Positions 3,431-46,070 are shown, numbered from the stretch's first letter. The stretch: 64,000 nucleotides of DNA from Chitinophaga pinensis (GCA_945907065.1 CAMDSC010000006.1:9111-73110); one strand, 5' to 3'. Program-made: numbers and translations. Notes: generated from the sequence alone by a model not told the origin.

Positions 3431-6139
3431 TTAATCTCCCTTGTAATGATTTTGTCTCATAATATCTTCCTGATCCATAGGAGGTCCTTGCATAATTTTA
3501 TGCCAATCTAATTCACGGTTGTATTTTTTCATGGCTTTTTGGGCATCAAAAACCCGAGTGTCATTTGGCTCAAGAGTGAAAGGAATAAAATCAGGTGTTT
3601 CTGTAAAAAAGTCTTGTAAAAGTGTAGCAGTAGCATCGTATTGATTGACATAAGGAATATTTAAAATATTATAAATAGTTTTGAGAATAGAGCCAAAACT
3701 GGCATGTGTATGGCTTACATGTCCTTTTTTTACATATGGACCTGCCATGATTAATATGCTTCTATGCGCATCTATATGATCTACACCTCCTTGAGGATCA
3801 TCTTCCGTAATAATAACTAATGTGTTTTTCCAGTATTTTGTTCTCGATAAAAAATGAAGAATGCGTCCAACAGCCAAATCATTATCGGCAACAAAGGAAT
3901 CTGGAAAATAATATCCATCTTCTGGTCTGGGTCCTGCGGTATGGTCATTTGGCACTTGCATGACAATTAAAGCCGGCATGGTATCTTTTCCTGTCAGCCA
4001 TTTCTCAGTAAATTCATTTTCAAATTGGTTCATTCTGAATTGATCCGGAATGTTGGTATTATAACCCGCGTAATTATGACTGGTTTTATTGAAAAGAGCC
4101 TTTTGCATTGGTACCATAACTCCGTGAGCAGCTCCAGTTGCTGTATCCATGGCCTCTTCCCTCACATGAGCAGTTTCATTGGCTTCACCAAAATTGTAAA
4201 ATGAAATGTTATTTCTTTCTAACGCTTCCCATAATCCGCCAATTTCCGCGTAATCCTCAGGATCCATACTTCCGGTAGAGCCTGGAAACCTTCGGCCGGG
4301 AGCAGATGAAAATAATTTTGCTGTTTTGTCAATACTGGAGTTGGTTTCTACCCATTCATTCGGAATAACTCCAAGCATCCAGTGATGTCCATGGATGGAA
4401 GCATCGCTTTCACAGTAAAAATTGTCGCTGTATGCAAAACTTTTGGCGGCTTTGTGGTGATTGGGTGTCACTTTTAATCCTTGATATTTTATTTTTAAGG
4501 AATCAGGTAGCACGTATTCACAATTGACTCCAAAACGGGCCAAACTGCTATCTCCCTTTCCGTCTTTTAATTGACCAAAAACCTCATCGTAAGTTCTGTT
4601 TTCTTTGGTAATATAAACGATGTGTTTTATAGGGCTGTTTCTCATTCGGGGTAGGAGAGGCAATGGGTTTTTACCATCATCTAAAAGAGTAATGCTTTTA
4701 AAGGTATTGCTCAATGTTTGTGAGGTGTATTTTTTTAATTGCTCATTGGTTGGCATTTTAACTTTTTGGAAACTTCCTAATTGTATATCTCCAATATAAG
4801 TGCCTTGTGGTGGTTTAATAAAGTTTTTTCCTCCATTGGGGCCTGCTCCCAAACCTCTGCATGAAATAATATAAAGTTCATTCTCTGATTTGGATAAAAT
4901 GACCCTGGAGGTACCCCAACCGCTGGGTATTAATCCTTTGGATGTTTTACTTTTAATATCGATAACTGCTAAGGCATTGAATCCTAAAAGGGCCACATAC
5001 AAAGTTTTTTCATCTTGACTTAAAGAAATGCCAAAAGGCAGCAATCCTCTTAATTTATCAATTCGTTGATCTACTCGTATCGGAATATGGGATACAATTC
5101 GATGATTTTTATAATCGATCACAGTTATATTGTCGTTAGTGGCATTGGTAACATAAGCATATTTTTTTCCAACTGCAATGGAATTGGGACTGGAACCGCC
5201 AACTACTTCGGCATTTTCAATCATTTCTCCAATCTGATAACCTGTTTTAAATTTGTCAACTACTTTGTTGGTAACAAGATTAATAGTGTAAACACTCATG
5301 GCTTCAGGTACATTTGGGCTTCCCACTCCAGGGATTTTTCTGCCTTCAATGATGGTTCCATGGATGGACTCCCGAGTATTGTTTCCGTAAGGATGACGAG
5401 AGATTAAGAGTGAATCATAATTTTTTTGATTGGCTCCTTCAATTAGGGGATACGAGTACATGCCCACGTTTGCAACAAAAGCAGTAGTTTTATCAGGACT
5501 CAAAGCTAAACCAAAAGGAAGTCTACCCACAGGAATAGAAGCGGTAATTTTTTTTAGTTTGAGATCATATCTAACCAATCTAAAATTTGCTCGGTCAAGA
5601 ATTAATAATTCATTTTTTGAATCATTCAGCAGTAAATCTGCGGTAAAGCTATCTTCATATTTTATTCCTTCAAACTCACCATTTAAAGAAAAGGTGTCTA
5701 TTTTTTCAAATTTCTCTATGTCGTAAATGATAACTGAACCTTGATCTCCTCCGCTTAAATAAACTGTTTTTGAATCAGGGTGAATGGCGATTCCAAGAAA
5801 AGAACCATGTTGAAGAGGCGATTTTATCTTTCCGTCATAGGATGGAACTCTTACCTGTTTTAGACTTGCAATATCAATAACTGTAAATACCCCATTATGA
5901 AGAGTCACTGCCTTTTTTTCATCAGAAGAAACAGCCATCCCAAAAGGATCATGCGTTATTCGAATAAAATTTCCTGCCGGAGTTAAGAATCTGCCACTAG
6001 CAAGAATTGAAATACCTTTTTCATTTATCCTACAAAAACTGTCTACACCAGGTACCTGCAAAATGGTTACTTTATTTTGGGCAATAGAATTGGAATAGAC
6101 ACTAAATATTAGAAGAGAAATGAGGAATATTTTTTTCAT
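3431..6139 (-). CDS. Secreted fusion protein: N-terminal YVTN/YncE-type beta-propeller and C-terminal phosphoesterase (phospholipase C / acid phosphatase AcpA family)
   Basis: Signal peptide MKKIFLISLLIFSVYSNSIAQ. The N-terminal half has repeated propeller-like blades (GxxxSPDxKxxYV patterns). The C-terminal half contains IKHIVYITKENRTYDEVFG, matching the ENRSFDhyfG signature of the PF04185 phosphoesterases. Confidence 0.6.
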   Translation of the reverse strand: MKKIFLISLLIFSVYSNSIAQNKVTILQVPGVDSFCRINEKGISILASGRFLTPAGNFIRITHDPFGMAVSSDEKKAVTLHNGVFTVIDIASLKQVRVPSYDGKIKSPLQHGSFLGIAIHPDSKTVYLSGGDQGSVIIYDIEKFEKIDTFSLNGEFEGIKYEDSFTADLLLNDSKNELLILDRANFRLVRYDLKLKKITASIPVGRLPFGLALSPDKTTAFVANVGMYSYPLIEGANQKNYDSLLISRHPYGNNTRESIHGTIIEGRKIPGVGSPNVPEAMSVYTINLVTNKVVDKFKTGYQIGEMIENAEVVGGSSPNSIAVGKKYAYVTNATNDNITVIDYKNHRIVSHIPIRVDQRIDKLRGLLPFGISLSQDEKTLYVALLGFNALAVIDIKSKTSKGLIPSGWGTSRVILSKSENELYIISCRGLGAGPNGGKNFIKPPQGTYIGDIQLGSFQKVKMPTNEQLKKYTSQTLSNTFKSITLLDDGKNPLPLLPRMRNSPIKHIVYITKENRTYDEVFGQLKDGKGDSSLARFGVNCEYVLPDSLKIKYQGLKVTPNHHKAAKSFAYSDNFYCESDASIHGHHWMLGVIPNEWVETNSSIDKTAKLFSSAPGRRFPGSTGSMDPEDYAEIGGLWEALERNNISFYNFGEANETAHVREEAMDTATGAAHGVMVPMQKALFNKTSHNYAGYNTNIPDQFRMNQFENEFTEKWLTGKDTMPALIVMQVPNDHTAGPRPEDGYYFPDSFVADNDLAVGRILHFLSRTKYWKNTLVIITEDDPQGGVDHIDAHRSILIMAGPYVKKGHVSHTHASFGSILKTIYNILNIPYVNQYDATATLLQDFFTETPDFIPFTLEPNDTRVFDAQKAMKKYNRELDWHKIMQGPPMDQEDIMRQNHYKGD

Positions 6140-6158
6140 TAATAAGGGTTTCTAATAC

Positions 6159-6189
6159 AAACAGGTAACCTAATTGAGGTTACCTGTTT
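6159..6189 (-). promoter_or_regulatory. Intergenic perfect 12-bp stem-loop between susD-like and the phosphoesterase gene (putative intra-operon attenuator or mRNA-stabilising hairpin)
   Basis: aaacaggtaacc-taattga-ggttacctgttt is a perfect inverted repeat with a 7-nt loop. It sits in the 72-nt gap after the SusD stop, and no strong U-tract follows on the transcribed (minus) strand. Confidence 0.4.
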
Positions 6190-6211
6190 TAAATGAATAT
6201 GACAAGTTTGT

Positions 6212-7768
6212 TTATTTAATAATCCACATTTTTTCATTGATATCATCACTACCAGAAAACTGCGATATAATTGCTGAATTAACATTGACAGCATTAACTG
6301 ATTTTTCGGAAACAGGGTATTGAAATCTCAAAGGAACTCTTTGACTATTTCCTGTACCAGGTCCAACATGGAAAGTTGGTGTTGTAGTTCTTCTCCAGTT
6401 ATAATAAGCTTCAGATCCGCTATTTTGATAAAATGCTAAATATTTTTGAGTTAAAATTTGGGTTAGACCGGCCGCTGAATTTCCGGCGTATTGAATGACT
6501 GGTTGTGCGTAATAGGTATTCCAATCGTAAGAAATGGTAAAGGTATTATAGTCATTAATGGAGCCATTTTTCTTTTGAAAGGTGACAGTATTGTTGCCAT
6601 TTACCAATCCGTAAAAACCGATACTCGACTGAATTCCTTTTTTATACCAATCCTCGGCATCCCCTGTAGTCCATCCGCGATTTATAGCCTCAGCAATATT
6701 AAAACACATTTCAGGATACCCGATTTGAATGATACTTTCTGCTGTGTAAGTTCTGTAATACCTGTTTCTGTTTATATAAGAGTATAATCCTGCCAATGCT
6801 TTGGTAGTCATAGTAGCCAAATCTTCACCACTGCCAGCCCCGTTAAAAGCTTGGAAACTTGTTGGTGAAGCTCCTGCTCTAACCAACGAATCGGCAGGTT
6901 CAGCGACTACGAAGGTTCTTGGGTCTTTATAGCTAACGAGTGTGTTTAAATAAGTACTTGACATATTGTAACGATTTACGTCAAGACCATAGATATCCGG
7001 ATTTGTAGGATATTTATCAAATGAATTTGGTACATAGGCCATATTATCTGTCATGTCTGAAAAAATAGGGTACTTGGAAGAATTGGACAATGTTTCAGTG
7101 AATTTTTGCTTAATGTTTAAATCGGCATCCCCTTCTTGTTTGCTTAGTTGAATAAGCACTCGCAATTTGAAGGTATTAACAGCCTTGCGCCATTTATTTA
7201 AATTATTAGCATAGTAAAAATCACTTGATAATAAATAGCTGCCGTTACTTGTAATGGTGCTTATTTCATTGTTTGATTCTTCAAGCCATACAAGTATTTG
7301 TTTGAAAACTTCCTTTTGACTATCGTACTTTGGCTTGGTGTTATCAATTCCCTTTAAAGCCTCAGATAATGGAATATCTCCAACTTGCATGGTTACATTA
7401 TAATACAAATAGGCACGGAAAAATTTTCCTAAGGCAGTGTATGCATTTGGAGCAGGAATATTTTTTGTGGCTTCCTCTTCCATTTTAAGCACATTGTTCA
7501 ACCATTTAAATGCATCATACGAAACACCTGTCCAACTATATTCCTGATCACCATAATAATTATAATTGCAGCAATAGAACTGATTCCAGCGTTGGGTTGG
7601 ATTAAATGATTTTTGAGTAAAGTCAACCAAAATTCCATTCAAAACTAAATTAGCCGGAACGCTTGTAGCACGGTTCTGATCCATTTCTAATGAATCAAAC
7701 TCTTTTTTACATCCACTCATTGCAAAGATGAAAGTAGAGGTTAATAGAATTATAAATACGTTTTTCAT
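6212..7768 (-). CDS. susD-like: SusD/RagB-family outer-membrane lipoprotein
   Basis: Lipoprotein signal (…FAMSGCKK), ~520 aa, a Trp/Tyr/Asn-rich alpha-helical composition, and a position immediately downstream (19 nt) of a SusC-type receptor. Confidence 0.7.
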   Translation of the reverse strand: MKNVFIILLTSTFIFAMSGCKKEFDSLEMDQNRATSVPANLVLNGILVDFTQKSFNPTQRWNQFYCCNYNYYGDQEYSWTGVSYDAFKWLNNVLKMEEEATKNIPAPNAYTALGKFFRAYLYYNVTMQVGDIPLSEALKGIDNTKPKYDSQKEVFKQILVWLEESNNEISTITSNGSYLLSSDFYYANNLNKWRKAVNTFKLRVLIQLSKQEGDADLNIKQKFTETLSNSSKYPIFSDMTDNMAYVPNSFDKYPTNPDIYGLDVNRYNMSSTYLNTLVSYKDPRTFVVAEPADSLVRAGASPTSFQAFNGAGSGEDLATMTTKALAGLYSYINRNRYYRTYTAESIIQIGYPEMCFNIAEAINRGWTTGDAEDWYKKGIQSSIGFYGLVNGNNTVTFQKKNGSINDYNTFTISYDWNTYYAQPVIQYAGNSAAGLTQILTQKYLAFYQNSGSEAYYNWRRTTTPTFHVGPGTGNSQRVPLRFQYPVSEKSVNAVNVNSAIISQFSGSDDINEKMWIIK

Positions 7769-7787
7769 TTTGTGTTTATTATATTAA

Positions 7788-10700
7788 TTAAAAGGTAAGA
7801 TTTAAATTTATTCCATAGCTCCTCAAAGTAGGAGTTTGAAGGTTTGTACTGCTTTGGTTAGCGAACTGATCCACATCCACATCTTTGAATTTTTTTCCAT
7901 CCTTCAAGAAATAAAGAACATTTCTGGCAACAATAGAAACCGTTGCACCTTGGATAAAACCTTTTTTGGCAATTGAACTTGGTATTTGATAAGTAAGTAC
8001 CACTTCTCTTAATTTTGTATAAGTCTTACTCATCATGTTTGGTTCAGGAATACTGTGAACACGGCTAATATAATCTTGTACATAAGTTTTGGTAGCATTG
8101 TCTGCAAATTGAAGTTCACCATAATTGATAATTTTACCTGTAACTGGATCAAATTTAATGGAAGCACTATTAGATACTTGAACCCCTTCACCTATGTATG
8201 ACTTAATTCCAAGTGCATCCTGATCACGGGAAATGCCGAAATCACCTTCTGTAGTTTCAATGTGTCTTCCTCCTTGGAAGGTTTTTTTCCTTACATAATC
8301 TTCCATTATACCTCCAACACGGCCATCAAATTGAAATCCAAGTGTAAAGCTTTTGTAACCAACCTTATTGTAAACGCTCCATACCCAATCTGGATTTGAA
8401 TGACCAGCCAATTGTGCTACTGGAAGAATAATTGGTCTTCCACCGCCATCATTGATAATTTTACCATCTTCAGTTCTTGCAAATTTTTTAATCCATACTT
8501 CATCTGTTCTGCTGCCAACCTTATAAAAATTGTTTATAGCAGTTAATCCTTCTGGCAATTCCTTGTATGTTTCTTTAAATTTAGACCAGTTAACCATCAC
8601 ATCCCAACTCAATCCTTTACCAACTTTTGATTTTTCAATAATTTTACCAGTAAGGGTTACTTCAAGACCCTTTTTTTCAGTTTTGGTTGCGTTAATAATA
8701 TTATTTGTAAATCCTGAGGCTTGTGAAATTTGTTGTGTAAAAATTTGTGGACCATCGATATATTTAAAGTATGCAAGATCTAGACCTATTCTATTGTTTA
8801 AAAACTTCATATCAATTCCTAATTCTGAATTGGTTCTGTTGTCAGGCTTAATATTTTCGTCTATCAGGTTATTAGAAAAACGAGAAGCAGTAGAATTGTT
8901 ATATCCAATAGAATTGCTGTAAACATCGTTAAATTGATATGAAGGGCCACCATAGGTTGAAGTGTATTGTGAACCATATCCAACAGGGTAAGTATTATTA
9001 GGGGTGACTCCAATTGTATTTGCTACGAATGCCCCTCCACCTCTGCTTTGGGCATAAGAAGCTCTTAACTTCAAAAAGTTTATTACTGAAGGAAGTTTAA
9101 CATAATCTGTAATCACAGTGTTAGCATTTACTGATGGATAAAAGAAGGTGTTGTTATCCTTTTTTAAGGCAGATAATTTATCAACTCTACCAGAGGTATT
9201 CAAGTTTGCATACTTGCCTAATTCAAAATCATAAGAATAGAAAGCACTATTTACTCTCATATCAGAATTGAAGTTATATGCTTTTACAGGATTTCTACTA
9301 TTGGAAAAGCTGTAAACATTTGGAACGTTCAAATAGTCAGTTTTAACAAAGCTTGAAGCATATGAAAACAACCTTATATTTCCACCAATCAAACCGCTTA
9401 CTTTTATAAAATTTGCAATTTTAGGGGCATTCATTCTCAATATTCCATCAGTGTTATTTTCGAATAAGGAGCGTTTGTCCTCAATATAGTCGCCTTGATT
9501 TTCCTCACGTCCATAAGGATGGGCTGAGAATGGCATTTTTTCAGTTCTTGTTAAATCATAAGTTGAAATAGAAGTTCTTCCCATAAAATCAAAATAGTTG
9601 TTGAATTTGTAAGTAAGAGAAGTGTATCCATAGATATCATTTTTATGATGGCCTCTTAACCATTCGTAGCTCATAAAGTATGGATTGTGATACCGCTGAT
9701 ATTCTTCATACTTGCTTTGAACTCCTTCTTTGCCAGGTTGCCAATAATCTTCCATATCGCGGATGTCCCAATCGGCACCTCCCCATATGGTAATGTTGTA
9801 AATTACACTGTTTGGACCATAATTTACATCTGGAATATTATCCGTAAATTGTTTGTTGAAATTAAGATTTGCATCCAACTTAAGTTTTTTAGTCATCTTC
9901 AAGGATGATGATAAATTAAAGTTAATCGTTTTTAAATCCGTATTTGGAATAATGCCCCTTTGATAGTTATTCGAAACCGAGAAACGCAAATCATGCTTTT
10001 CTCCGCTTGAAGATATTGCAATGCTATTATTGGTTAAAATACCGGTTTGGATAAATCGCTCTAAGTTATCTTTACCTCTTGCAGTCCAAGGTGTTGGTGT
10101 TCTTTTTCCAGTAATAGGATCAACAGGACTATCGTATTGTGGTAAAAGGCGTCCATCAAATTTTGGACCCCAAATATCATAATCTCCATCATTAACTCCT
10201 GCTCCTTTTCCGTCTACGAATTCGTATTTTCCATGATCCCCAGGTCCATATAAATCTTGAGTTCTTGGCAAAGCAATAAATCCTTTTTGAAACATTGTGC
10301 TACTGTTATATTCAACTGCAAAACCACGTTTATTTTTGCTTCCTTTTTTTGTATTTATTATAATAGCACCGTTTTGACCGCGGTATCCATACAAAGCTGA
10401 AGCAACAGGGCCTTTTAAAATGGTATAGCTTTCAATATCATCACCATTTATGTTCCAAGTATCAGAATTAATTGGCACACCATCCACTACATATAAATAT
10501 ATGGGATTACCTCTCATAAGTACCTGAGGATTGCCCAATAACTCGGCTGAAGCGCCAACAGTTAATCCGGCAACTTTACCTGTTAATGTGGTAAAGGGGT
10601 TTGGATCTCTGGCTTTAACTAAATCTTCTCCTTGCACTTCCTGTGTGGCATAACTGATATATTTCTTATCTTTTTTAACCCCTAAGGCTGTTATCACCAA

Positions 10701-21399: not shown

Positions 21400-21472
21400 T
21401 CGATTTTAATTAATAATAACACCTTGTTATTTCAGAATTATTATAAATTTGTTTCCCATTCATTTTAGATTG

Positions 21473-29145: not shown

Positions 29146-30123
29146 TTACAATTTTTGAAACTCAAACTTTGGATATCCTTTAACTCCCAAATCATTATAA
29201 AAATCGAGGAAGTGAAGTTTGTAATAAAACCCATCTGAAACTTTCAAAATATAATTAATCTTTGGGTTTACAATATAAGAGTTGGTGGTAAAATTAAAAG
29301 ATTTCCAGTCATAACCAATTCCATCCCTAATAGTTAAAAAATTATAAGCCGAAATATTATTTGGTGTAATATCTGAATAAGAAGTTTTTGAATCTAACGC
29401 CACTTTTATTCTTTCCGTATTTACCAAAACTCCTAAAAGCTGATAGTTTTGGGTAATCTTGAAGTCATTGGAATACACTAGTTTTACATATTGAGTAAAC
29501 CATAAATCCCACATGTTTTTGGGCGGTTCAATATCAGCAGGTTTATCTTTGATAAAAGAATAGTAATTGAAATTGAATAATTCATTTTTTTTAATAACTC
29601 GTGTTTTGGGCGTGTTTTCATCCAGCTTACACCACGATATTTTAAGGCTTTTATCCGTTTGTAACTCAGGCATACACTTAATAAAACCAATAGGCATTCC
29701 AAAATCATCTGAACCTAAATTTATAATAAAAATTTCAGACGATTTAAGCCACCATTGGCCCATAGCTAAACTATCTAAGTTAAAATCGGGCTGACCCCAC
29801 AAAAATTTCAAACCTACGGTATCTGTAACTTCATTAAAATTAGTTTTTCCGGTGGCTGCTGCATATACACCACGGCCATTATTTAACAAAATAATATGTC
29901 TGTTGGGTTGGCAATCAAATGCAATATCCCAATCCATACGTTTAATGGTTTTAATAATTTTATTGGAATCAAGATTGAAAAAAATATGGTCGGCATAAGT
30001 ATTTCCCATACTTACTGAATTAGTGATAACACTACCACGGTCAAATGGTTTTATTGGTTTTTCTGGGCGTTCGCAACCATATATAAAAGCAATGAGTAAA
30101 AGTAGGTAACCAAATTTTTTCAT
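29146..30123 (-). CDS. HmuY-like lipoprotein (putative haem/ligand-binding partner of the adjacent TonB-dependent receptor)
   Basis: Lipoprotein signal (…FIYGCERP). The motif DWDIAFDCQPNRHIILLN resembles the HmuY NWDMALHRYDVRLN region. It is paralogous to ORF 32467..33672 through shared DWD(I/L)AF and GYDWK(S/T)(F/Y)N motifs. Confidence 0.5.
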   Translation of the reverse strand: MKKFGYLLLLIAFIYGCERPEKPIKPFDRGSVITNSVSMGNTYADHIFFNLDSNKIIKTIKRMDWDIAFDCQPNRHIILLNNGRGVYAAATGKTNFNEVTDTVGLKFLWGQPDFNLDSLAMGQWWLKSSEIFIINLGSDDFGMPIGFIKCMPELQTDKSLKISWCKLDENTPKTRVIKKNELFNFNYYSFIKDKPADIEPPKNMWDLWFTQYVKLVYSNDFKITQNYQLLGVLVNTERIKVALDSKTSYSDITPNNISAYNFLTIRDGIGYDWKSFNFTTNSYIVNPKINYILKVSDGFYYKLHFLDFYNDLGVKGYPKFEFQKL

Positions 30124-32420
30124 TATTTTTTTATAAAGTTATAGTCTAATTTCAGGAAATACAAACGACCCATTCCTAATTGCAAGGAATTACTATTGCC
30201 GCTATGCACACCTCCTGTATTTCCATTGGCGGTTAGCGAAGTTATATTTAAAATATTTTTAACTCCAATTCCAAAAATCCATTTTTGATTAATAAAAGGT
30301 TTTGATAGCGTTAAATCAGCCCAGGTATAACCTGCAATTGTTGATTTTATAGGTTCTCCTAATTCATTGGTAATAAAATTTATCGATTCGCTATTAATCT
30401 TTATAAATAAAGACGTATTAATTCCCGTCTTTTTGTGAAGATAGGAAGTGTTATTTGTAATTTCATAAGAATTGAAAGGGTTTAAAAATCCTTTGGTGGC
30501 GGAAGAAATAACAGTATGTGATATTCCAAAATTCCCTGTAAATGCTTTGAGTTTAAATCCTAAATTACCATTTGTTGTCATGGCTTTAAAAAAATCAAGA
30601 TTACGATAGGTATAGGCTGCATCTTTAATGTTGGCCAATACAATTCTATCGGTAATAGTATTATAAAATAAGGATAACTCAGGCTGAAGCCAGTTGGTTT
30701 TTTTTATAATTTTTTTAACAACTGATAACTGAAAATTGTGAGATTGCTCTGGATTTAAGTTAGGATTTCCTGTAATGTTGTGGTTGACATCTACAAAAAA
30801 CAAGTACAATTCTTTAAGGTCGGGAGCTCTGTATCCTCGAGCATAAGAGGTTCTAAATGTTAAACTTTTTTGAGCAGCCCATTTAATATTCAAACTTGGT
30901 AATGGAATTGTTTTATAAGATGTGTTATCTGAATAACGAATTCCTGGTTTTATTTGCCATTTAATAGTTGGAGAAATTTCCATACTTAAAAAAGTGGCAT
31001 AATCACTTATAGTAATTTCTTCGTTCTTAAGTTTTTTACCAACTCCAGTTTCACGGTTTATGTCATATCCAATTTGATAATTAAATCGTGCATTCATAAG
31101 GGATTTGGTATAAGTTCCTCTTAATACAATGGCTGTAAATTTTGAAGTATCTTGTTCATTGGTTTCAGGAACCAAGTTTTTATCCAATGTAACTCTATTA
31201 AAAAGGTATCTGTTTTTGGTGCGATGATAAACGTTGTAGGCTGCAATAAGATTCAAATATCTATTGTGAGGTAGTTTAGATGTTGCCGTTATTGAATTAT
31301 CAAATCTTCGGGTTTTATAATATTCATCAAAGGCAGTTTCCATATAAGGTAATCGGGGAGTTCCCTTATTTATAAGATTTTCATTAAAAAATTCAGATTT
31401 CATATTTAAATCAAACAATCCAATTTTTCGTAAGTATTGCACTCGTCCAAAGTATTGTTCTTTCGGTTTCCATTCCTGAAATCTTACATAATCTTTGGAT
31501 GACCAACCATCAAAATAATTTCGTCCGGCTGAAATATGATAAACTCCATTGCTTTTTCTCAACCCAATATTTACAGTGTTATTATACCGGCCAACACTTT
31601 CATTATAAGTGGTAGCATTTATAGTTATTTTATTGAGTTGTTTCTTTTTGGTAATAATATTTATAGCTCCAGCCAATGCATTGGTTCCATATGCTACAGA
31701 TAATGGGCCTTCAATTATTTCAATGCGTTCAATATCGTTAAGGTTTATTTGGCTCAGGTCAATATTTCCGTTAACCCTACCTATAATTGGAACTCCGTCG
31801 ATTAAAATTTTTACATTTTGACCGGAAATTCCCATCAAAGTCATGTTACTTCCCAATAAATTATCTTGACCAAGCTTTACATTCAATTGATTGCTCAATA
31901 AATCATTCAGATTATTAGCTGCCATACTTTTTATCTTTCGTTCATCAATTACTATTACTTTGTTAATTGATTTTTCAGGAATTGTTGCTGAATATTGGTC
32001 AGTAATTACCGCTTCGGGCAAATATTTAAGATCTACTTTTAGTTTAATTGTATAATTACCATCCTTGCTGATAGTATCTTTTCTGATTTCAAAACCCAAA
32101 TAAGTTATTAATAAGGCTACCTTACTTCCCTGACTGTATATAGTTATTTCGCCTTGTTCATTCGTAACGGAATGCAAAGTTTGTCCGGTATTTATAACCG
32201 TCCATTTAATAGGGGCATAGGTTAAAAGGCTATTATCTTCTTCATTAATAAGTTTTATTTTTATTTGAGCTATACACGAAAAGCTAAATAAAAAGAAAGC
32301 CAATGCCATTCCTGTTTTTAAAATAGAAAATGGTATCGGCTTAGTTTTAATTGAATTGTTAACCATTAAGGGCTGCAAAAATAGGCCGATGATGATATTT
32401 ATGATTCTGATTTTTGTCAT
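30123..32420 (-). CDS. TonB-dependent receptor (HmuR-like), with an N-terminal carboxypeptidase-regulatory-like domain
   Basis: 765 aa, with a plug region (…DERKIKSMAANNLNDLLS…LMGISGQNVKILIDGVPI…) and an NPNL-like NPNLNPEQS motif typical of TonB-dependent receptor barrels. Confidence 0.8.
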   Translation of the reverse strand: MTKIRIINIIIGLFLQPLMVNNSIKTKPIPFSILKTGMALAFFLFSFSCIAQIKIKLINEEDNSLLTYAPIKWTVINTGQTLHSVTNEQGEITIYSQGSKVALLITYLGFEIRKDTISKDGNYTIKLKVDLKYLPEAVITDQYSATIPEKSINKVIVIDERKIKSMAANNLNDLLSNQLNVKLGQDNLLGSNMTLMGISGQNVKILIDGVPIIGRVNGNIDLSQINLNDIERIEIIEGPLSVAYGTNALAGAINIITKKKQLNKITINATTYNESVGRYNNTVNIGLRKSNGVYHISAGRNYFDGWSSKDYVRFQEWKPKEQYFGRVQYLRKIGLFDLNMKSEFFNENLINKGTPRLPYMETAFDEYYKTRRFDNSITATSKLPHNRYLNLIAAYNVYHRTKNRYLFNRVTLDKNLVPETNEQDTSKFTAIVLRGTYTKSLMNARFNYQIGYDINRETGVGKKLKNEEITISDYATFLSMEISPTIKWQIKPGIRYSDNTSYKTIPLPSLNIKWAAQKSLTFRTSYARGYRAPDLKELYLFFVDVNHNITGNPNLNPEQSHNFQLSVVKKIIKKTNWLQPELSLFYNTITDRIVLANIKDAAYTYRNLDFFKAMTTNGNLGFKLKAFTGNFGISHTVISSATKGFLNPFNSYEITNNTSYLHKKTGINTSLFIKINSESINFITNELGEPIKSTIAGYTWADLTLSKPFINQKWIFGIGVKNILNITSLTANGNTGGVHSGNSNSLQLGMGRLYFLKLDYNFIKK

Positions 32421-32466
32421 AATCCAATATGATTTAATTACATACTGAATTAATCAGTATCAATTA

Positions 32467-33672
32467 TTAAAGCGACGTTTTTGTGAATTTTAAATTTTGA
32501 ATTCCTTTATCAGTAAGCAAATGAATAAAATATATTCCTGAATTTAATGTTGAAATATCAACAATAGTTTCGGTTCCTGAAATAGCTAATTGCCCCAAGA
32601 TATTTATAATTTTATAATTAATCAATGAATTATCTGGAGACAATCTAAGATTTAATATTCCATTAGCCGGGTTAGGATAAACAGTATTTGTAGTAAGTTT
32701 AGGAGATTTTGAACTTGCTGTTACAGCTTGTTTGCTAAAATAGTATGTTCCGCTGGCACCACCTTTATAACCTGTAAAAACAATCTTCCAGTTAGCATCT
32801 TTTGTTTTTATAAAATATACAAGATTGTCAGTAATTATATATTTATTTAACGATTGGTTATAGGTTTTCCAGTCATATCCAATTACGCTATTTGTGTCAG
32901 AAAAACGATAGGGGCTAAAGTCTTTTATGGTTGTAGCAACATTTCTGGCTTCAGCAGTTGTATAACCTTTATTAGTCCATATTCCACCTACATTGTATGG
33001 GGTAGGGATAAAGTCAGTATACTTTGTAAATAACACATCCCAATCTGAAGTTGCAGGCTCGCGATCAATTTTAGTCTCTGTTGTAAATGAATAGTAAGCA
33101 AAGTTCTTTCCTTTAAAATTAGCCTTGTCAATAGATGATATTTTTTCACCTGAACCATCGATATTAGAATACTTAATATTATAAATTCCAGAACTTAGAT
33201 TTAGGATAGTAATTTTTTTGTAATCTCCGGTTGCCAATTTTATAATAAAAATGCTGTCGCCGGCCACTATATGGGTACTTGGGTCATAAGTTCCCCAGCC
33301 TAAATCATATGGATCACCATTGTTATTATTATGCAAGTTAAAAGCTCCCAAACTCCAACTTTGAGGGCTATTATACATTTTTTTCCAGGTCTTGAAACCA
33401 GCAGTATCAAGGTTGGCCCATTTAGAATATGAATAAGGCGATTGCCAAACCATTAAGCCTTTTACGTGATTGGCTAATATACTGGCTGTAAATCCAGTAA
33501 TTTCAAAAGCTAAATCCCAATCATTATTTGGTTGAGATTTTACAATACCGTTGGTAAAACTGTAGTAAACATCATTGGCATTAGATGAGCCGGTACTTAC
33601 TGAATCAGTGGTTTGAGAGTGAGCTGTAAGTGCAACTGCTAGTAAAATAAGTGTAGTTATTTGTTTTATCAT
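32467..33672 (-). CDS. HmuY-like protein with a type IX secretion C-terminal sorting domain
   Basis: A signal peptide, the HmuY-like motifs DWDLAFEITG… and GYDWKTYNQ…, and a C-terminal tail (YPNPANGILNLRL…ISTLNSGIYFIHLLTDKGIQNLKFTKTSL) of Por_Secre_tail type. Confidence 0.5.
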   Translation of the reverse strand: MIKQITTLILLAVALTAHSQTTDSVSTGSSNANDVYYSFTNGIVKSQPNNDWDLAFEITGFTASILANHVKGLMVWQSPYSYSKWANLDTAGFKTWKKMYNSPQSWSLGAFNLHNNNNGDPYDLGWGTYDPSTHIVAGDSIFIIKLATGDYKKITILNLSSGIYNIKYSNIDGSGEKISSIDKANFKGKNFAYYSFTTETKIDREPATSDWDVLFTKYTDFIPTPYNVGGIWTNKGYTTAEARNVATTIKDFSPYRFSDTNSVIGYDWKTYNQSLNKYIITDNLVYFIKTKDANWKIVFTGYKGGASGTYYFSKQAVTASSKSPKLTTNTVYPNPANGILNLRLSPDNSLINYKIINILGQLAISGTETIVDISTLNSGIYFIHLLTDKGIQNLKFTKTSL

Positions 33673-33751
33673 TTTTGTTGTTTTTATGAGGATGCAAAGG
33701 TATTTTTATTTGGTTTTAAAGTAGACCAAAATATTAATAAATATAGCTTTT

Positions 33752-34183
33752 TTACCTTAATGTTATTATCACTACACGGTTTACTAATTTGGTTTTAAAC
33801 GATTTTAATGGTTTCGAAGCTGGCTCTTTCAAGGCATTACCTTCAAAATCAAAAACACTGCCATGCGAGGTACAATAAATATTTTTATTGCTCATAGTTA
33901 GGGGTTGGTCTTCATGTGAACATTTTAATTCTAAAGTTTTAAATTCAGTTTCAGATTTTTTTATAATCAATAAGTCGAAAGCAAAATTTTTAACTCGAAC
34001 AATTACCAGTTTTGATTTTTCGAATTTTGCAATTGGTATAGTAAATTCTTTTACAGTAGTATCCAGTTTAACTTTAACCATTGGCACACTAGCACAACTT
34101 TCCATCAATAAAGCAGTAATGCCGGGCAAAGCAAACATTGCACAGGCAGTGCACGATGATTTTATGAATTGGGATCTCTTCAA
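33752..34183 (-). CDS. Small Rieske-type [2Fe-2S] domain protein with a Tat-like (KR) signal peptide
   Basis: CSH…(13 aa)…CTSHGSVFD resembles the Rieske boxes CxH…CPCHGSxFD. The N-terminal MKRSQFIKSSCTACAMFALPG is signal-like. Confidence 0.5.
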   Translation of the reverse strand: MKRSQFIKSSCTACAMFALPGITALLMESCASVPMVKVKLDTTVKEFTIPIAKFEKSKLVIVRVKNFAFDLLIIKKSETEFKTLELKCSHEDQPLTMSNKNIYCTSHGSVFDFEGNALKEPASKPLKSFKTKLVNRVVIITLR

Positions 34184-34190
34184 TTAATTA

Positions 34191-35423
34191 TTAAAAACTA
34201 TATCCAAAGCCAATATTGACATAACTATTAGTAGTGTTAAATGGTAATGTGGCGCTGTAAGGATTTGTTTTGTATAACGATTGATTATACTTGCCTGTTT
34301 TTTGCCAAACATAATCTGCTTTTATTACTACTCCTTTTGTTGGCGCAAAGGTAATTCCAGATATCGAAATTAACTGATTTTGGTAATCATCCTTAAATGC
34401 GTTTGTTGGAATTTTATAATTTAAGTCAAGACTTTCAAGCCTTGAAAATACTGTTAAATCTTTCTTACTGTCTTTATTTATAAGATAAAGTAGGTGCAAT
34501 CCAGCTTCCACATATCCACCATAAATAATTTCTGGAGTATTAGATTTATATGCCTTATTTATTTTTTCAGCGTCTGAAATTTTTATTACTGCTAACATTG
34601 CTTTCCATTCATAAAGACTATTTGAAAATCTTATATTGGCCTCATTCAAACTAATTGGGGTAGCAAATGCTCCTGATTTTAGCCCCAAACTATCGGATTC
34701 CTTTTTATCTAATCCTGCACTTCCACCAAAGTAGCTAGAGTACTGAATCCTGAAGTTACCGATGTAATACAACAATGCACCACTTATAGCAATATTTGAA
34801 GCGGGGGCATAACTACCAGCCATTCTGCCTTTGCGAATGCCAGAGCCAAAAGCAAAATTTTTACTATTTAAGCCATTAAATAACGCCGTAGAATAATTTA
34901 ATCCTCTAATTTTATTTGAACTACCATAATAAGCCACTCCTATTTCGCGCCAGGTAGAAGGAATGACTTTTTGTTCTATGAACGGGCGGTCATTGCCATT
35001 AAAGGTTGTTGATAGGTGGTTTTCATTTATAAGGCCAATACGGGGTGTAAATAAACCAGTGATTATATAATTAGAAGGATTTAAAGAAAACTTAAGAAAA
35101 AATTGTTCCATTGATATTTCACCTTTAGTGCCTGATGCAACTTTGGCATTTTCAAGTTCCAATTCCGAAAAAAAGAAAACATTGTTTGAAAACTTATGAC
35201 CAAAAAACATAACATTTCTAGTGAGATTGGCAGTTCCTGTTTTTGAACCTAAGTCGTAGTTTACTTTTGCTTCACCATACCCTGAAAGAACCGAATAATT
35301 ATTAGTTCGTCCGGTTAAGCCTGCACTCAATGAATCTTCTTTTGTTAAAATTTGAGCTGATGAATAGGTTACTCCTGCAAATATCAGAAGTGTAGCGAGT
35401 GATATTTTAAATTCTATTTTCAT
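34191..35423 (-). CDS. Outer-membrane beta-barrel (porin-like) protein
   Basis: Signal peptide, an alternating amphipathic beta-strand pattern, abundant Gly/Tyr/Asn and a terminal …GFGYSF. Confidence 0.45.
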   Translation of the reverse strand: MKIEFKISLATLLIFAGVTYSSAQILTKEDSLSAGLTGRTNNYSVLSGYGEAKVNYDLGSKTGTANLTRNVMFFGHKFSNNVFFFSELELENAKVASGTKGEISMEQFFLKFSLNPSNYIITGLFTPRIGLINENHLSTTFNGNDRPFIEQKVIPSTWREIGVAYYGSSNKIRGLNYSTALFNGLNSKNFAFGSGIRKGRMAGSYAPASNIAISGALLYYIGNFRIQYSSYFGGSAGLDKKESDSLGLKSGAFATPISLNEANIRFSNSLYEWKAMLAVIKISDAEKINKAYKSNTPEIIYGGYVEAGLHLLYLINKDSKKDLTVFSRLESLDLNYKIPTNAFKDDYQNQLISISGITFAPTKGVVIKADYVWQKTGKYNQSLYKTNPYSATLPFNTTNSYVNIGFGYSF

Positions 35424-35564
35424 AAATCGAGTGCAAAATTATTTTTATTTAGACTAATTCCAAATAGCAATATAGGTTTTTTTAAAAAACTGATAAAAAT
35501 CATTTTTGATGATAAGTTAGGGCAAAGGGTTTTAATCATTAATTGTAATTTTGCACTATAAATT

Positions 35565-44634: not shown

Positions 44635-45075
44635 ATTTAGAATTACATAACTTTAATAAAAACATAAGTTCTTAACACGCTTTGCAATAATCATGTTTTG
44701 TGTCAATTATATTTGTCTAGTCTAGTATGTTTAACATTTATTGATTCATCATAATTATGTTGAGTATAAAAAAGCTTGAAGTTTTATTGATTTACTTTTA
44801 AAAATATTTTTTTAATAAAAAATGACTAAAATCATTGCTAGCCAATTACTATATGCTAATAATTAACTATTTATCAAAATTTTGGACAACAATATCAATC
44901 GTGTAGACAAACTGCAGTAAAATTGTCTTTCTATTTTTTTGATGTGTACAAAAATATTTTATAGTTAATAATAACTTTTAAAGTATTGTAAAATAAATAC
45001 TTACGTATTATTTAGATGAATTCTAAATTGACGATATTGTGTAAAAATTAAACTAGCCTCATAAGTTTACTCCCT

Positions 45076-45083
45076 TATATTTG
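45076..45083 (+). promoter_or_regulatory. Candidate -7 promoter box (TATATTTG, TAnnTTTG consensus) for the alternative complex III operon
   Basis: It sits at the 3' end of a ~450-nt AT-rich leader region and overlaps the TTG that the ORF track used as a start. The first ATG (45111) lies ~28 nt downstream. Confidence 0.3.
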
Positions 45084-45110
45084 CAGCCGAAAAATCAGGT
45101 TTCCCCCTAT

Positions 45111-46070
45111 ATGTTTAAATATCTAAATAGTAGTAGAAATGCAGCAGCATTAATGTCGGTGTTATCCGCATCTACTGCCCTAATGGCACAGCAAACCGCT
45201 GCAGCTCCCGGAGAAAAACCGAGTCTGTTTTATACCGACACTACATTCGTAATCGTATTATTACTTTGTTTATTATTCTTCGTAATCGCCTATTTTCTTT
45301 ATAGGGTAAAAAGTCATTTGGATAAAATGATTGATGAGAATGTGGAAGGTGGTAGAGAATTGTCACGATATGATAAAGTTGTTAAACCATGGTTAAAAAC
45401 ACTTAATCCAACTGTTACTGCACTGCTTTTAGGAACTATTTTTGGATTGTTTGCTTTTGTAAAAGCATACAAATTTGGTGTGACAGAAGTAGGTGTACAA
45501 AAAGGATATTCGCCAACTCAACCAATTAAATTTTCACATACAATGCATGCCGGAAAGTTACAAGTGGATTGTAAATATTGCCATTCAACGGCTGACAAAA
45601 GTAAGCAGGCAAGTATTCCTTCTGCTAATACTTGTATGAATTGTCATAAGTATATTACACTTCGGGATAGGTATAATGGTCAGGTATCCCCTGAAATAAG
45701 TAAAATATATAAAGCTATAGGATGGGATGCGGAAACAAATTCATACATTCCTAATTATAAACAAAAACCGATTGAATGGGTAAGAATTCATAATTTGCCT
45801 GACTTAGCTTACTTTAATCACTCACAACACGTAGTTGTTGGAAAAGTGGAGTGCCAAACTTGTCACGGACCTATTCAGGAAATGGATCAGGTTTATCAGT
45901 TTTCAAGTCTTCAGATGAACTGGTGTATAAACTGTCACAAAGAAAGAAGTGTAGATGTAGCCAATAATAAATATTATGAAGATCTTCATAAGCGCTTGAA
46001 AATTCAAGGCAAAACTGTTTATACGGTAGCTGATAATGGAGGTTTGGAATGTGGTAAATGTCATTATTAA
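45111..46070 (+). CDS. actA: Alternative complex III subunit ActA (pentahaem cytochrome c)
   Basis: Five CxxCH motifs (CKYCH, CMNCH, CQTCH, CINCH, CGKCH), an N-terminal transmembrane helix, and a position as the first gene of an actABCDEF cluster. The track ORF starts at TTG 45081. Confidence 0.75.
   Translation: MFKYLNSSRNAAALMSVLSASTALMAQQTAAAPGEKPSLFYTDTTFVIVLLLCLLFFVIAYFLYRVKSHLDKMIDENVEGGRELSRYDKVVKPWLKTLNPTVTALLLGTIFGLFAFVKAYKFGVTEVGVQKGYSPTQPIKFSHTMHAGKLQVDCKYCHSTADKSKQASIPSANTCMNCHKYITLRDRYNGQVSPEISKIYKAIGWDAETNSYIPNYKQKPIEWVRIHNLPDLAYFNHSQHVVVGKVECQTCHGPIQEMDQVYQFSSLQMNWCINCHKERSVDVANNKYYEDLHKRLKIQGKTVYTVADNGGLECGKCHY

Follow-up and report, generated by a model that had tools for sequence, protein, structure and literature searches.

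Five minus-strand genes lie at positions 29146-35423 of the window, by which we mean the whole 64-kb stretch of Chitinophaga pinensis DNA that was analysed. In transcription order they encode an outer-membrane barrel, a small Rieske [2Fe-2S] protein, a HmuY-like protein with a type IX secretion system (T9SS) tail, a TonB-dependent receptor and a HmuY-like lipoprotein; we refer to the last three as the triad. All five open reading frames of the original prediction, which took them for a single haem- or metal-uptake cluster, are present with unchanged endpoints (Table 1).

The Rieske gene begins 7 nt past the porin stop, and the next two gaps are 79 and 46 nt. The last two genes overlap by 1 nt, the receptor stop and the lipoprotein start sharing one base (TAATG at 30123) as had been noticed earlier, and through this TAATG the lipoprotein gene appears to be translationally coupled to the receptor gene. 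Neither a terminator nor a conserved internal promoter was found within the cluster, and we infer that the five genes are co-transcribed.

Table 1. Genes and sequence elements of the locus, in transcription order
Feature	Position	Strand	Remarks
Fur-box-like 19-bp palindrome ATTTGGAATTAGTCTAAAT	35447..35465	-	2 mismatches to Riemerella Fur box ATTTAGAATTATTCTAAAT
Bacteroidota-type -7 element TAATTTTG (TAnnTTTG)	35434..35441	-	10 nt upstream of porin ATG
OprP-like outer-membrane porin gene	34191..35423	-	410 aa, Sec signal, 16 strands predicted by modelling
Small Rieske [2Fe-2S] protein gene	33752..34183	-	143 aa, TTG start, PF00355
Inter-module spacer	33673..33751	-	79 nt, between Rieske and T9SS-tailed HmuY-like genes
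HmuY-like gene with T9SS tail	32467..33672	-	Sec signal, type A sorting domain, PF18962
T9SS type A sorting domain	32470-32682	-	Residues 331-401
TonB-dependent receptor gene	30123..32420	-	N-terminal extension, plug, barrel; likely true start 32309
HmuY-like lipoprotein gene	29146..30123	-	325 aa, lipid-anchor Cys17, PF14064

TAnnTTTG is the established -7 consensus of Bacteroidetes promoters. The porin gene has such an element 19 nt downstream of a -33 TTTG element (35461-35464), and the predicted Fur box covers the TTTG and most of the 19-nt promoter spacer. The -7 consensus is cited in PMC5609570, from which we also took the Riemerella Fur box as reference motif. Sites with at most three mismatches to it number only three across the 64 kb, against 0.36 expected. 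A search for a Fur box upstream had been proposed as a check; the Riemerella-type box found there, overlapping the porin promoter, supports iron regulation of the cluster.

The 79-nt spacer contains neither a Fur box nor a terminator. It carries a -7-like TACCTTTG at 33695-33702 and an inverted repeat, ATTTTGGT-N9-ACCAAAT. Since the -7-like element is missing from the corresponding spacer of three relatives (L001, L004 and L007), the triad is more likely transcribed by read-through from the Fur promoter.

The porin and the Rieske protein

The barrel had been called porin-like, and modelling agrees, giving a 16-strand, OprP-like fold. The family is without a Pfam model: no family match was obtained at E<=0.1 among Pfam and NCBIfam models, and phmmer against PDB sequences returned nothing relevant. 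The window porin retains all family-invariant residues. It differs from the phosphate-specific porins OprP and OprO in sequence (only 13% identity), in that its family matches no Pfam porin models, in its family invariants (12 Asp/Glu versus 7 Arg/Lys, plus two His, by a count of invariant columns) and in its predicted control by Fur, not phosphate.

The Rieske protein matches PF00355 at 2e-8 and contains CSH...CTSH. Conservation of its cluster ligands was borne out: C88-S-H90 and C104-T-S-H107 are invariant in eight close orthologues, and C88, H90, C104 and H107 occur in 66/66 family members, as does a lipobox-like Cys30. The claim of a Tat signal holds for the family, in which 57 of 66 members have the canonical motif RRxF[ILV], but not for the window copy and its close orthologues, which read KRSQFIK with the second Arg replaced (RR to RS). 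About 506 clusters at 50% identity match it with E<=1e-10, and median identity to the wider family is 36% for the window Rieske protein versus 51% for the window porin. Loss of the second Arg and the faster divergence of the Rieske protein could reflect either a changed role or relaxed constraint.

Metagenome loci were selected for their resemblance to the window porin, and phylogenetically they are not independent of one another. The porin gene is immediately followed by the Rieske gene in 66 of the 70 that are informative, and genes for an imelysin (Peptidase_M75) and a di-haem oxidoreductase (DHOR) come next in 40 of 47; both identities were confirmed with Pfam. A similar Fur box lies 5' of 55 of the 71 porin genes in these loci (0.0045 expected per segment), and feoAB adjoins the porin operon in L016 and L093. 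Fur-regulated imelysin and DUF1111/DHOR operons are known from PA4370-PA4373 of P. aeruginosa, IrpA and Efe-like outer-membrane clusters (Xu et al. 2011, PMC3143127), whose published description includes neither a porin nor a Rieske protein. In relatives the porin-Rieske pair opens an operon that closes with these two proteins and has a Fur box; in the window the Fur box is present, and the imelysin and DHOR genes are missing, replaced downstream by the triad. We found no published description of the pair, which is apparently widespread and previously undescribed, and we regard it as the more interesting object of the locus.

A search of the 64-kb window by tblastn detected neither M75 nor DHOR (DUF1111), which are not adjacent in this lineage. 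Together with the degenerate Tat motif and the relatively fast evolution of the Rieske protein, this would fit a pair left behind as a decaying, functionless remnant once imelysin and DHOR were lost. We consider that highly improbable. Both reading frames are intact in all lineage members (55-77% identity), as are the cluster ligands in all eight, and no porin invariant has been lost. Pair-only states, without M75 and DHOR, arose several times, independently in at least four other lineages, so the pair appears viable alone.

The HmuY-like proteins and the receptor

The lipoprotein matches the HmuY model PF14064 at 2e-16 (61 bits against a cut-off of 27) and has the all-beta fold of HmuY. HmuY membership had been predicted for both proteins; the T9SS-tailed protein of the window has no direct match to the Pfam HmuY model, and three of its seven orthologues do match PF14064 (best E=2e-11). 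That the two are paralogues is clear from direct comparison (28% identical, E=1e-19) and from profile-profile alignment of their families with hhalign (probability 100%, E=1e-44). Their different targeting, around a TonB-dependent receptor, is likewise upheld as a prediction from sequence, with a lipid anchor on one and a T9SS tail on the other. The sorting domain (residues 331-398) scores E=5.5e-12 with PF18962 and 6.8e-11 with TIGR04183 and is found in six of seven orthologues; that of L020 has a lipoprotein signal instead.

HmuY-HmuR of Porphyromonas gingivalis and HfpR-HfpY of Flavobacterium psychrophilum likewise place a HmuY-fold protein beside a TonB-dependent receptor under iron control, and F. 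columnare is known to secrete a HmuY with a T9SS tail (PMC9618737). The triad also resembles the strongly Fur-regulated trio of HmuY, receptor and hypothetical protein in Riemerella (PMC5609570). The window locus is distinguished from these systems by its two paralogues, one with a lipid anchor and the other apparently secreted or surface-attached by way of T9SS, and by the lack of HmuS/T/U/V genes in the cluster. Both paralogues are about 300 aa long, ~150 aa larger than solved HmuY proteins, the T9SS-tailed protein belonging to an expanded subfamily of ~310 aa.

The haem-ligating residues that were to be looked for did not emerge: the 42 lipoprotein-family sequences contain no invariant or near-invariant His or Met, and the canonical axial ligands (His134/His166 of HmuY; Met/Met of Tfo) are not conserved in the window proteins. 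The middle region of the lipoprotein, where the ligands would lie, gave no sequence alignment to solved HmuY proteins. His134 of the T9SS-tailed family is invariant in seven orthologues.

The receptor has a plug (PF07715, 1.4e-19) and a barrel domain (PF00593, 8e-24). The first 37 residues of its reading frame are common only to L001, and the true start is probably the Met at 32309. The sequence YRAPDLKELYLFFVDVNHNITGNPNL, of the form YRAP-x14-His-x5-NPNL, includes a His that is invariant in six orthologues; FRAP and NPNL boxes are not confined to this receptor class, so assignment as a haem receptor is supported, not settled. All NCBIfam receptor sub-family models score far below cut-off, the best being the B12 model (115 against 600 bits), with the haem models TIGR01785 and TIGR01786 at 93 and 90 bits against 317 and 324. 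Among solved structures, the best match by sequence is the xenosiderophore receptor 9gbc; this match and that to the B12 model are sub-threshold and lie mostly in the plug region.

The triad occurs alone in L018, L019, L020 and L102. The receptor gene of a triad-type cluster in L101 is displaced, and the L103 cluster consists of just the lipoprotein gene and that for the T9SS-tailed protein. Three of these six stand-alone clusters have a Fur box, which in L019 immediately precedes the triad and in L101 and L102 heads the cluster. The L102 cluster further includes a PepSY_TM-like protein and a chelatase lipoprotein of the CbiX type.

The ligand of the triad is probably haem or another iron tetrapyrrole, haem itself being plausible. 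A non-haem ligand (another metallo-tetrapyrrole, a corrinoid or an iron chelate), with proteins HmuY-like in fold only, would suit the missing His and Met ligands, the ~150 extra residues, the plug-centred B12 and 9gbc scores and the Fur boxes in only half of the stand-alone clusters. We judge it unlikely, in view of the Fur boxes that are found (window, L019, L101 and L102), the invariant His between the FRAP and NPNL boxes, the CbiX tetrapyrrole chelatase in L102 and the lack of a cobalamin riboswitch anywhere in the window. HmuY relatives including HfpY bind haem, moreover, and the divergent HfpY does so without canonical ligands (PMC9331221).

Two modules behind one Fur box

Outside the window lineage no HmuY or receptor gene lies downstream of the porin-Rieske pair (0 of 47 loci), and in seven distant genomes the porin gene adjoins the Rieske gene with no HmuY or receptor genes. 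None of the six triad-type clusters (L018-L020, L101-L103) includes the pair. L019 is a syntenic relative, with flanks (trxB ... orf188 ... AMP-ligase) as in the window and no porin-Rieske pair. The five-gene arrangement is kept in the window, L001, L004 and L007, and in a neighbor-joining tree of the porin these form one derived clade that lies within the four-gene operons; the junction of the two modules had a single evolutionary origin.

The account that we favour, with moderate confidence, is a composite iron-starvation operon in which two modules of separate origin stand behind one Fur-repressed promoter 5' of the porin gene. The first, an OprP-like porin and a small exported Rieske [2Fe-2S] lipoprotein, is the conserved part of an operon found widely in Bacteroidota, in which imelysin (an EfeO-like iron-binding protein) and DHOR usually come next. 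A small iron species, probably Fe(II), may reach the periplasm through its porin, and its Rieske protein may carry single electrons for periplasmic iron redox chemistry. The putative role of the pair in iron uptake is deduced from the Fur boxes and neighbouring genes.

The second module would be a hemophore-type relay. The T9SS-exported HmuY-like protein would capture the ligand outside the cell and hand it to the paralogous lipoprotein, presumably surface-exposed and seated on the receptor, which would import it, most likely as haem or another iron tetrapyrrole. Comparable relays, from a secreted or surface binder to a receptor-capping lipoprotein, are BtuH-BtuG-BtuB (B12) and XusB-XusA (enterobactin), in which receptor and lipoprotein genes are translationally coupled, as they seem to be here; the binder of the window differs in having a HmuY-like fold, not a beta-propeller.

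The five genes might instead form one dedicated haem-uptake machine, with a periplasmic Rieske protein that reduces Fe(III)-haem or aids iron release after receptor import, much as the original prediction suggested. Bacteroidetes are thought to strip ferrous iron from haem in the periplasm, for which a reductant would be needed (PMC10100974), and the PepSY_TM-like protein and CbiX chelatase recruited in L102 indicate that redox or dechelation partners do join triad modules. Co-directional genes, short gaps, one Fur box, the lack of a conserved internal promoter or terminator, and an arrangement kept in all four genomes point the same way. We nevertheless give this reading little credence: the junction arose once, the Rieske gene is tied to the porin gene rather than to the receptor gene, triads occur without it even in syntenic L019, and none of the 47 other porin-Rieske loci has HmuY or receptor genes downstream. 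The proposals that the Rieske protein and barrel belong to a haem module, and that the Rieske protein reduces haem, thus find no support. Given two independently distributed modules, the Rieske protein is unlikely to be dedicated to haem. All five genes have nevertheless stayed together behind one Fur box in the four genomes despite divergence to 62-77% protein identity, and the modules of the composite operon may therefore still cooperate functionally.

A more specific idea, which we put forward tentatively and as possible rather than probable, is that the porin and the Tat-type Rieske lipoprotein together make up a Fur-controlled iron gate of Bacteroidota, built from two proteins and not described before. 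An iron species would enter through the porin, and the Rieske protein would perform a one-electron Fe(II)/Fe(III) step feeding imelysin/DHOR or FeoB; in the window lineage the gate would have been redirected to the haem-type receptor module, where it might, for instance, reduce ferric haem ahead of iron removal.

Cyc2 is a fused cytochrome-porin Fe(II) oxidase, and MtrAB-type systems are porin-cytochrome complexes. By analogy, they too link an outer-membrane barrel genetically with a protein for one-electron redox chemistry, in connection with iron. In the window the redox partner is a Rieske [2Fe-2S] lipoprotein, not a c-type cytochrome, the pairing is known from the genes, and the context is iron acquisition within the predicted Fur regulon, not respiration.

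Gene content and iron control of the cluster

The ORF listing bears out, with three small corrections, the original prediction of five co-directional genes (minus strand). The Rieske TTG start lies 7 nt past the barrel stop, and the TAA of the receptor gene and the ATG of the lipoprotein gene have one base in common (TAATG). At its N-terminus the receptor ORF is extended by 37 residues (32310-32420) that it has in common with the relative L001 only; because of the orthologue alignment we take the true start to be probably the Met at 32309, where the signal peptide would begin, the annotated start being too far upstream. A predicted lipoprotein gene (orf188) converges on the HmuY lipoprotein gene; it also adjoins the HmuY-receptor-HmuY triad in relatives L001, L004 and L019, an adjacency that L018 and L020 lack.

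Features of the uptake cluster and of other sites discussed in the text
Feature	Position	Strand	Evidence or note
Barrel protein (porin), 410 aa	34191-35423	minus	ORF listing; no Pfam or NCBIfam match
Rieske protein, 143 aa, TTG start	33752-34183	minus	ORF listing; Pfam Rieske 2e-8
HmuY-like protein with T9SS tail, 401 aa	32467-33672	minus	ORF listing; Pfam Por_Secre_tail 5.5e-12
TonB-dependent receptor, 765 aa	30123-32420	minus	ORF listing; Pfam plug 1.4e-19, receptor barrel 8e-24
HmuY-like lipoprotein, 325 aa	29146-30123	minus	ORF listing; Pfam HmuY 2e-16, 61 bits vs cut-off 27
Predicted lipoprotein (orf188), 188 aa	28574-29140	plus
Candidate Fur box, 19 bp	35447-35465		ATTTGGAATTAGTCTAAAT; two mismatches
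Second Fur-box-like palindrome	45010-45028		ATTTAGAATTCATCTAAAT; two mismatches
Third, weaker Fur-box-like site	21430-21448		three mismatches
Multihaem cytochrome c gene	45081-46070
Molybdopterin/4Fe-4S protein, 1013 aa	46087-49128		Tat signal
Laminin_G_3 protein, 928 aa	21449-24235		T9SS sorting tail
Inverted repeat, 19 nt	32442-32460		ATACTGA-TTAAT-TCAGTAT; no T-run

Iron control, anticipated for the region upstream of the cluster, is supported by the palindrome ATTTGGAATTAGTCTAAAT, which lies 42 nt upstream of the porin ATG and has two mismatches against the Riemerella Fur box ATTTAGAATTATTCTAAAT; in Riemerella, Fur bound promoter fragments with such boxes in EMSA (PMC5609570). Overlapping this candidate box is a promoter of the Bacteroidota type, in which TTTG is followed after a 19-nt spacer by TAATTTTG. 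A sigma-70 promoter and terminator scan was uninformative (31 promoter-like sites against 34.5 expected), and the Bacteroidota -33/-7 consensus was used instead. Scanning with the Riemerella-type palindrome gave three sites with at most three mismatches across the 64 kb of the window, where 0.36 would be expected. Among metagenome porin genes 55 of 71 have a box within 250 nt upstream, allowing up to four mismatches, against a background of 0.0045 per segment. A Fur box also lies directly upstream of the triad in L019, and one heads the cluster in L101 and L102.

The triad is most likely transcribed by read-through from the Fur promoter, because the 79-nt Rieske-HmuY spacer contains no terminator and its -7-like motif, TACCTTTG, is missing in relatives. 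That motif was rejected as an internal promoter before the T9SS gene, being unconserved in L001, L004 and L007, which share the window's arrangement.

The second Fur-box-like palindrome of the window is approximately 50 nt upstream of the multihaem cytochrome c gene, which is followed by the molybdopterin/4Fe-4S protein gene. The two look like ActA/ActB of alternative complex III, and such a pair under this box would hint that an iron-rich respiratory complex is controlled by iron. The third site abuts the start of the Laminin_G_3 protein gene.

Two modules joined once

The original prediction had the Rieske protein as a possible partner in haem uptake. The Rieske alignment, scanned against genomes, found ten loci. 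Three close relatives (L005-L007) have the same HmuY and receptor genes downstream, to their contig ends; the remaining seven (33-40% identity) have the barrel and Rieske genes side by side, but no HmuY or receptor genes with them. Distant barrel homologues belong to a four-gene operon of barrel, Rieske, Peptidase_M75 (imelysin) and DHOR (di-haem oxidoreductase). At times feoAB, the ferrous iron transporter genes, adjoin this operon, which fits a link to Fe(II). In L016 feoAB is directly upstream and divergent (5615-7880), and in L093 directly upstream on the same strand (5286-7603).

The barrel alignment, scanned against metagenomes, yielded 80 loci. The Rieske gene is directly downstream of the barrel in 66 of the 70 with enough flank, and M75 and DHOR genes follow the pair in 40/47; a few lineages keep the pair without them. 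HmuY or receptor genes follow it in none of these 47. A small clade (L027, L043, L046 and also L092) has the porin without a downstream Rieske gene, and so the porin can persist alone; Fur boxes are upstream in L027, L043 and L046.

The triad stands alone in L018, L019 and L020, with variants in L101-L103. The decisive case for two separate modules is L019, which keeps the window's flanks (trxB on one side, orf188 and AMP-ligase on the other) without the barrel-Rieske pair. In a neighbour-joining porin tree, pair-only states arose several times, and the window lineage is one clade nested among four-gene operons; the junction of pair and triad therefore arose once.

The original interpretation is supported in part, namely for an uptake locus under iron control whose HmuY paralogues are genuine; it is unsupported for the Rieske protein as haem-locus partner, given the 47 other loci and L019. 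Its position next to haem-type genes is best explained by two Fur-regulon modules joined once. A functional link between the Rieske protein and the haem module is conceivable, since the arrangement is kept in four diverged genomes and periplasmic haem dechelation requires a reductant, although only one evolutionary event stands behind it. The two-module result corrects a tempting misreading, in that the adjacency would reflect this junction and not a need of haem uptake for the Rieske protein.

Among the triad variants, L102 (737-7975) has the order GerE-type response regulator (Fur box upstream), HmuY (T9SS), CbiX-type chelatase, PepSY_TM-like protein, DUF6686, receptor and HmuY lipoprotein. 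Its chelatase is an exported lipoprotein, and the cluster is a possible set for haem dechelation/reduction in the periplasm. The query lipoprotein was listed in 75 collection blocks, and 22 further places have mostly the same neighbouring genes.

Protein families of the two modules

The barrel belongs to a large family (974 matches across Bacteroidota at approximately 55% identity) whose conservation is unusual, with more than 90 invariant columns in 40 sequences. Searches by sequence (phmmer against PDB, Pfam, NCBIfam) were all empty, and structure prediction alone resolved the barrel. A full HMMER scan for the Rieske protein gave approximately 506 clusters (50% identity) at E<=1e-10; nearly all of the best 150 listed are about 140 aa long and matched over almost their whole length. 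The Rieske CxH/CxxH ligands, whose conservation had been in question, are kept in all eight close orthologues and in 66/66 family members (alignment drawn from L021-L100). The family also shows RRxF[ILV] in 57/66, a CxxC directly after it in 58/66 and a lipobox-like Cys in 66/66. The window lineage has KRSQFIK in place of RRxF[ILV], which points to a degenerate Tat motif. The family's CxxC (residues 11-14 of the window's protein) sits inside the expected cleaved signal peptide, yet is conserved; the lipobox Cys is residue 30. In Bizionia argentinensis the Rieske gene BZARG_RS03005 and a neighbouring cytochrome c gene are down in an iron-regulator mutant (PMC9478572), a lead only, as kinship with the window's Rieske family could not be established.

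The HmuY-like proteins are true paralogues, with 28% identity over approximately 296 aligned positions (E=1e-19) and family profiles that align end to end (probability 100%, E=1e-44). The Pfam HmuY model recognizes the lipoprotein but not the window's T9SS-tailed copy, although 3/7 orthologues of the latter match. In the lipoprotein only about 140-157 of 325 residues align, and its profile-to-PDB alignment reaches only the N-terminal and C-terminal portions of the fold, which argues for an expanded HmuY subfamily. Canonical haem ligation is unconserved, because no His or Met is invariant across 42 lipoprotein-family sequences and the T9SS-tailed family has a single invariant His, H134. HfpY, likewise without conserved canonical ligation, binds haem (PMC9331221).

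The receptor has the signature YRAP-x14-H-x5-NPNL, its His invariant across six orthologues; this fits haem receptors, though it is found outside them too. Curated NCBIfam sub-family models all fail on it (B12, 115 of 600; haemin, 93 of 317). Its best solved relatives (XusA 9gbc, CirA, BtuB, PhuR) match the N-terminal extension and plug only; NCBIfam and PDB sequence matches, confined to these regions, leave haem, B12 and siderophore classes unseparated. An Rfam scan found zero RNA families in the whole window, hence no cobalamin riboswitch.

Proposed roles in iron acquisition

Read from sequence, these are two modules with separate histories, both intact and both tied to iron by candidate Fur boxes. 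In the pair, a small iron species would enter through the porin, and the Rieske lipoprotein would be a one-electron carrier in the redox chemistry of periplasmic iron. Among most relatives this chemistry presumably involves imelysin, an EfeO analogue, and the di-haem enzyme, an EfeB analogue (PMC3143127). Iron acquisition by imelysin/IrpA-type systems has long been poorly understood (Xu et al. 2011, PMC3143127). Bacteroidota imelysin operons are almost always headed by a Fur box and the genes of a dedicated porin and of a small, exported Rieske protein, which points to a specific iron entry route and a defined electron carrier. The searchable literature yielded no description of the porin-Rieske-imelysin operon, or of the pair as a conserved leading part, with Fur box, of imelysin-DHOR operons, and an F. 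psychrophilum paper supplement mentions neither Rieske, imelysin, peroxidase nor electron transfer. The pair is the part of the locus deserving follow-up.

The HmuY/receptor part is a member or variant of the HmuYR, HfpRY and F. columnare T9SS HmuY systems. The T9SS-exported paralogue would capture the ligand and the lipid-anchored one, translationally coupled to the receptor, would take it at the receptor for TonB-dependent import. Given the fold, receptor signature, Fur control and the exported CbiX-type chelatase and PepSY_TM-like protein of L102, the ligand is most likely haem or some other iron tetrapyrrole. There is published evidence for iron removal from haem in the periplasm of Bacteroidetes (PMC10100974).

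The twin arrangement, T9SS-exported and lipid-anchored, is common across environmental Bacteroidota and suggests a two-tier hemophore relay. In L020 the first HmuY-like copy carries a lipoprotein signal, without a T9SS tail. The inverted repeat between the T9SS HmuY-like stop and the receptor gene is a possible hairpin for RNA processing or stability that would raise hemophore transcript levels over those of the receptor, an effect reported for hmuY and hfpY.
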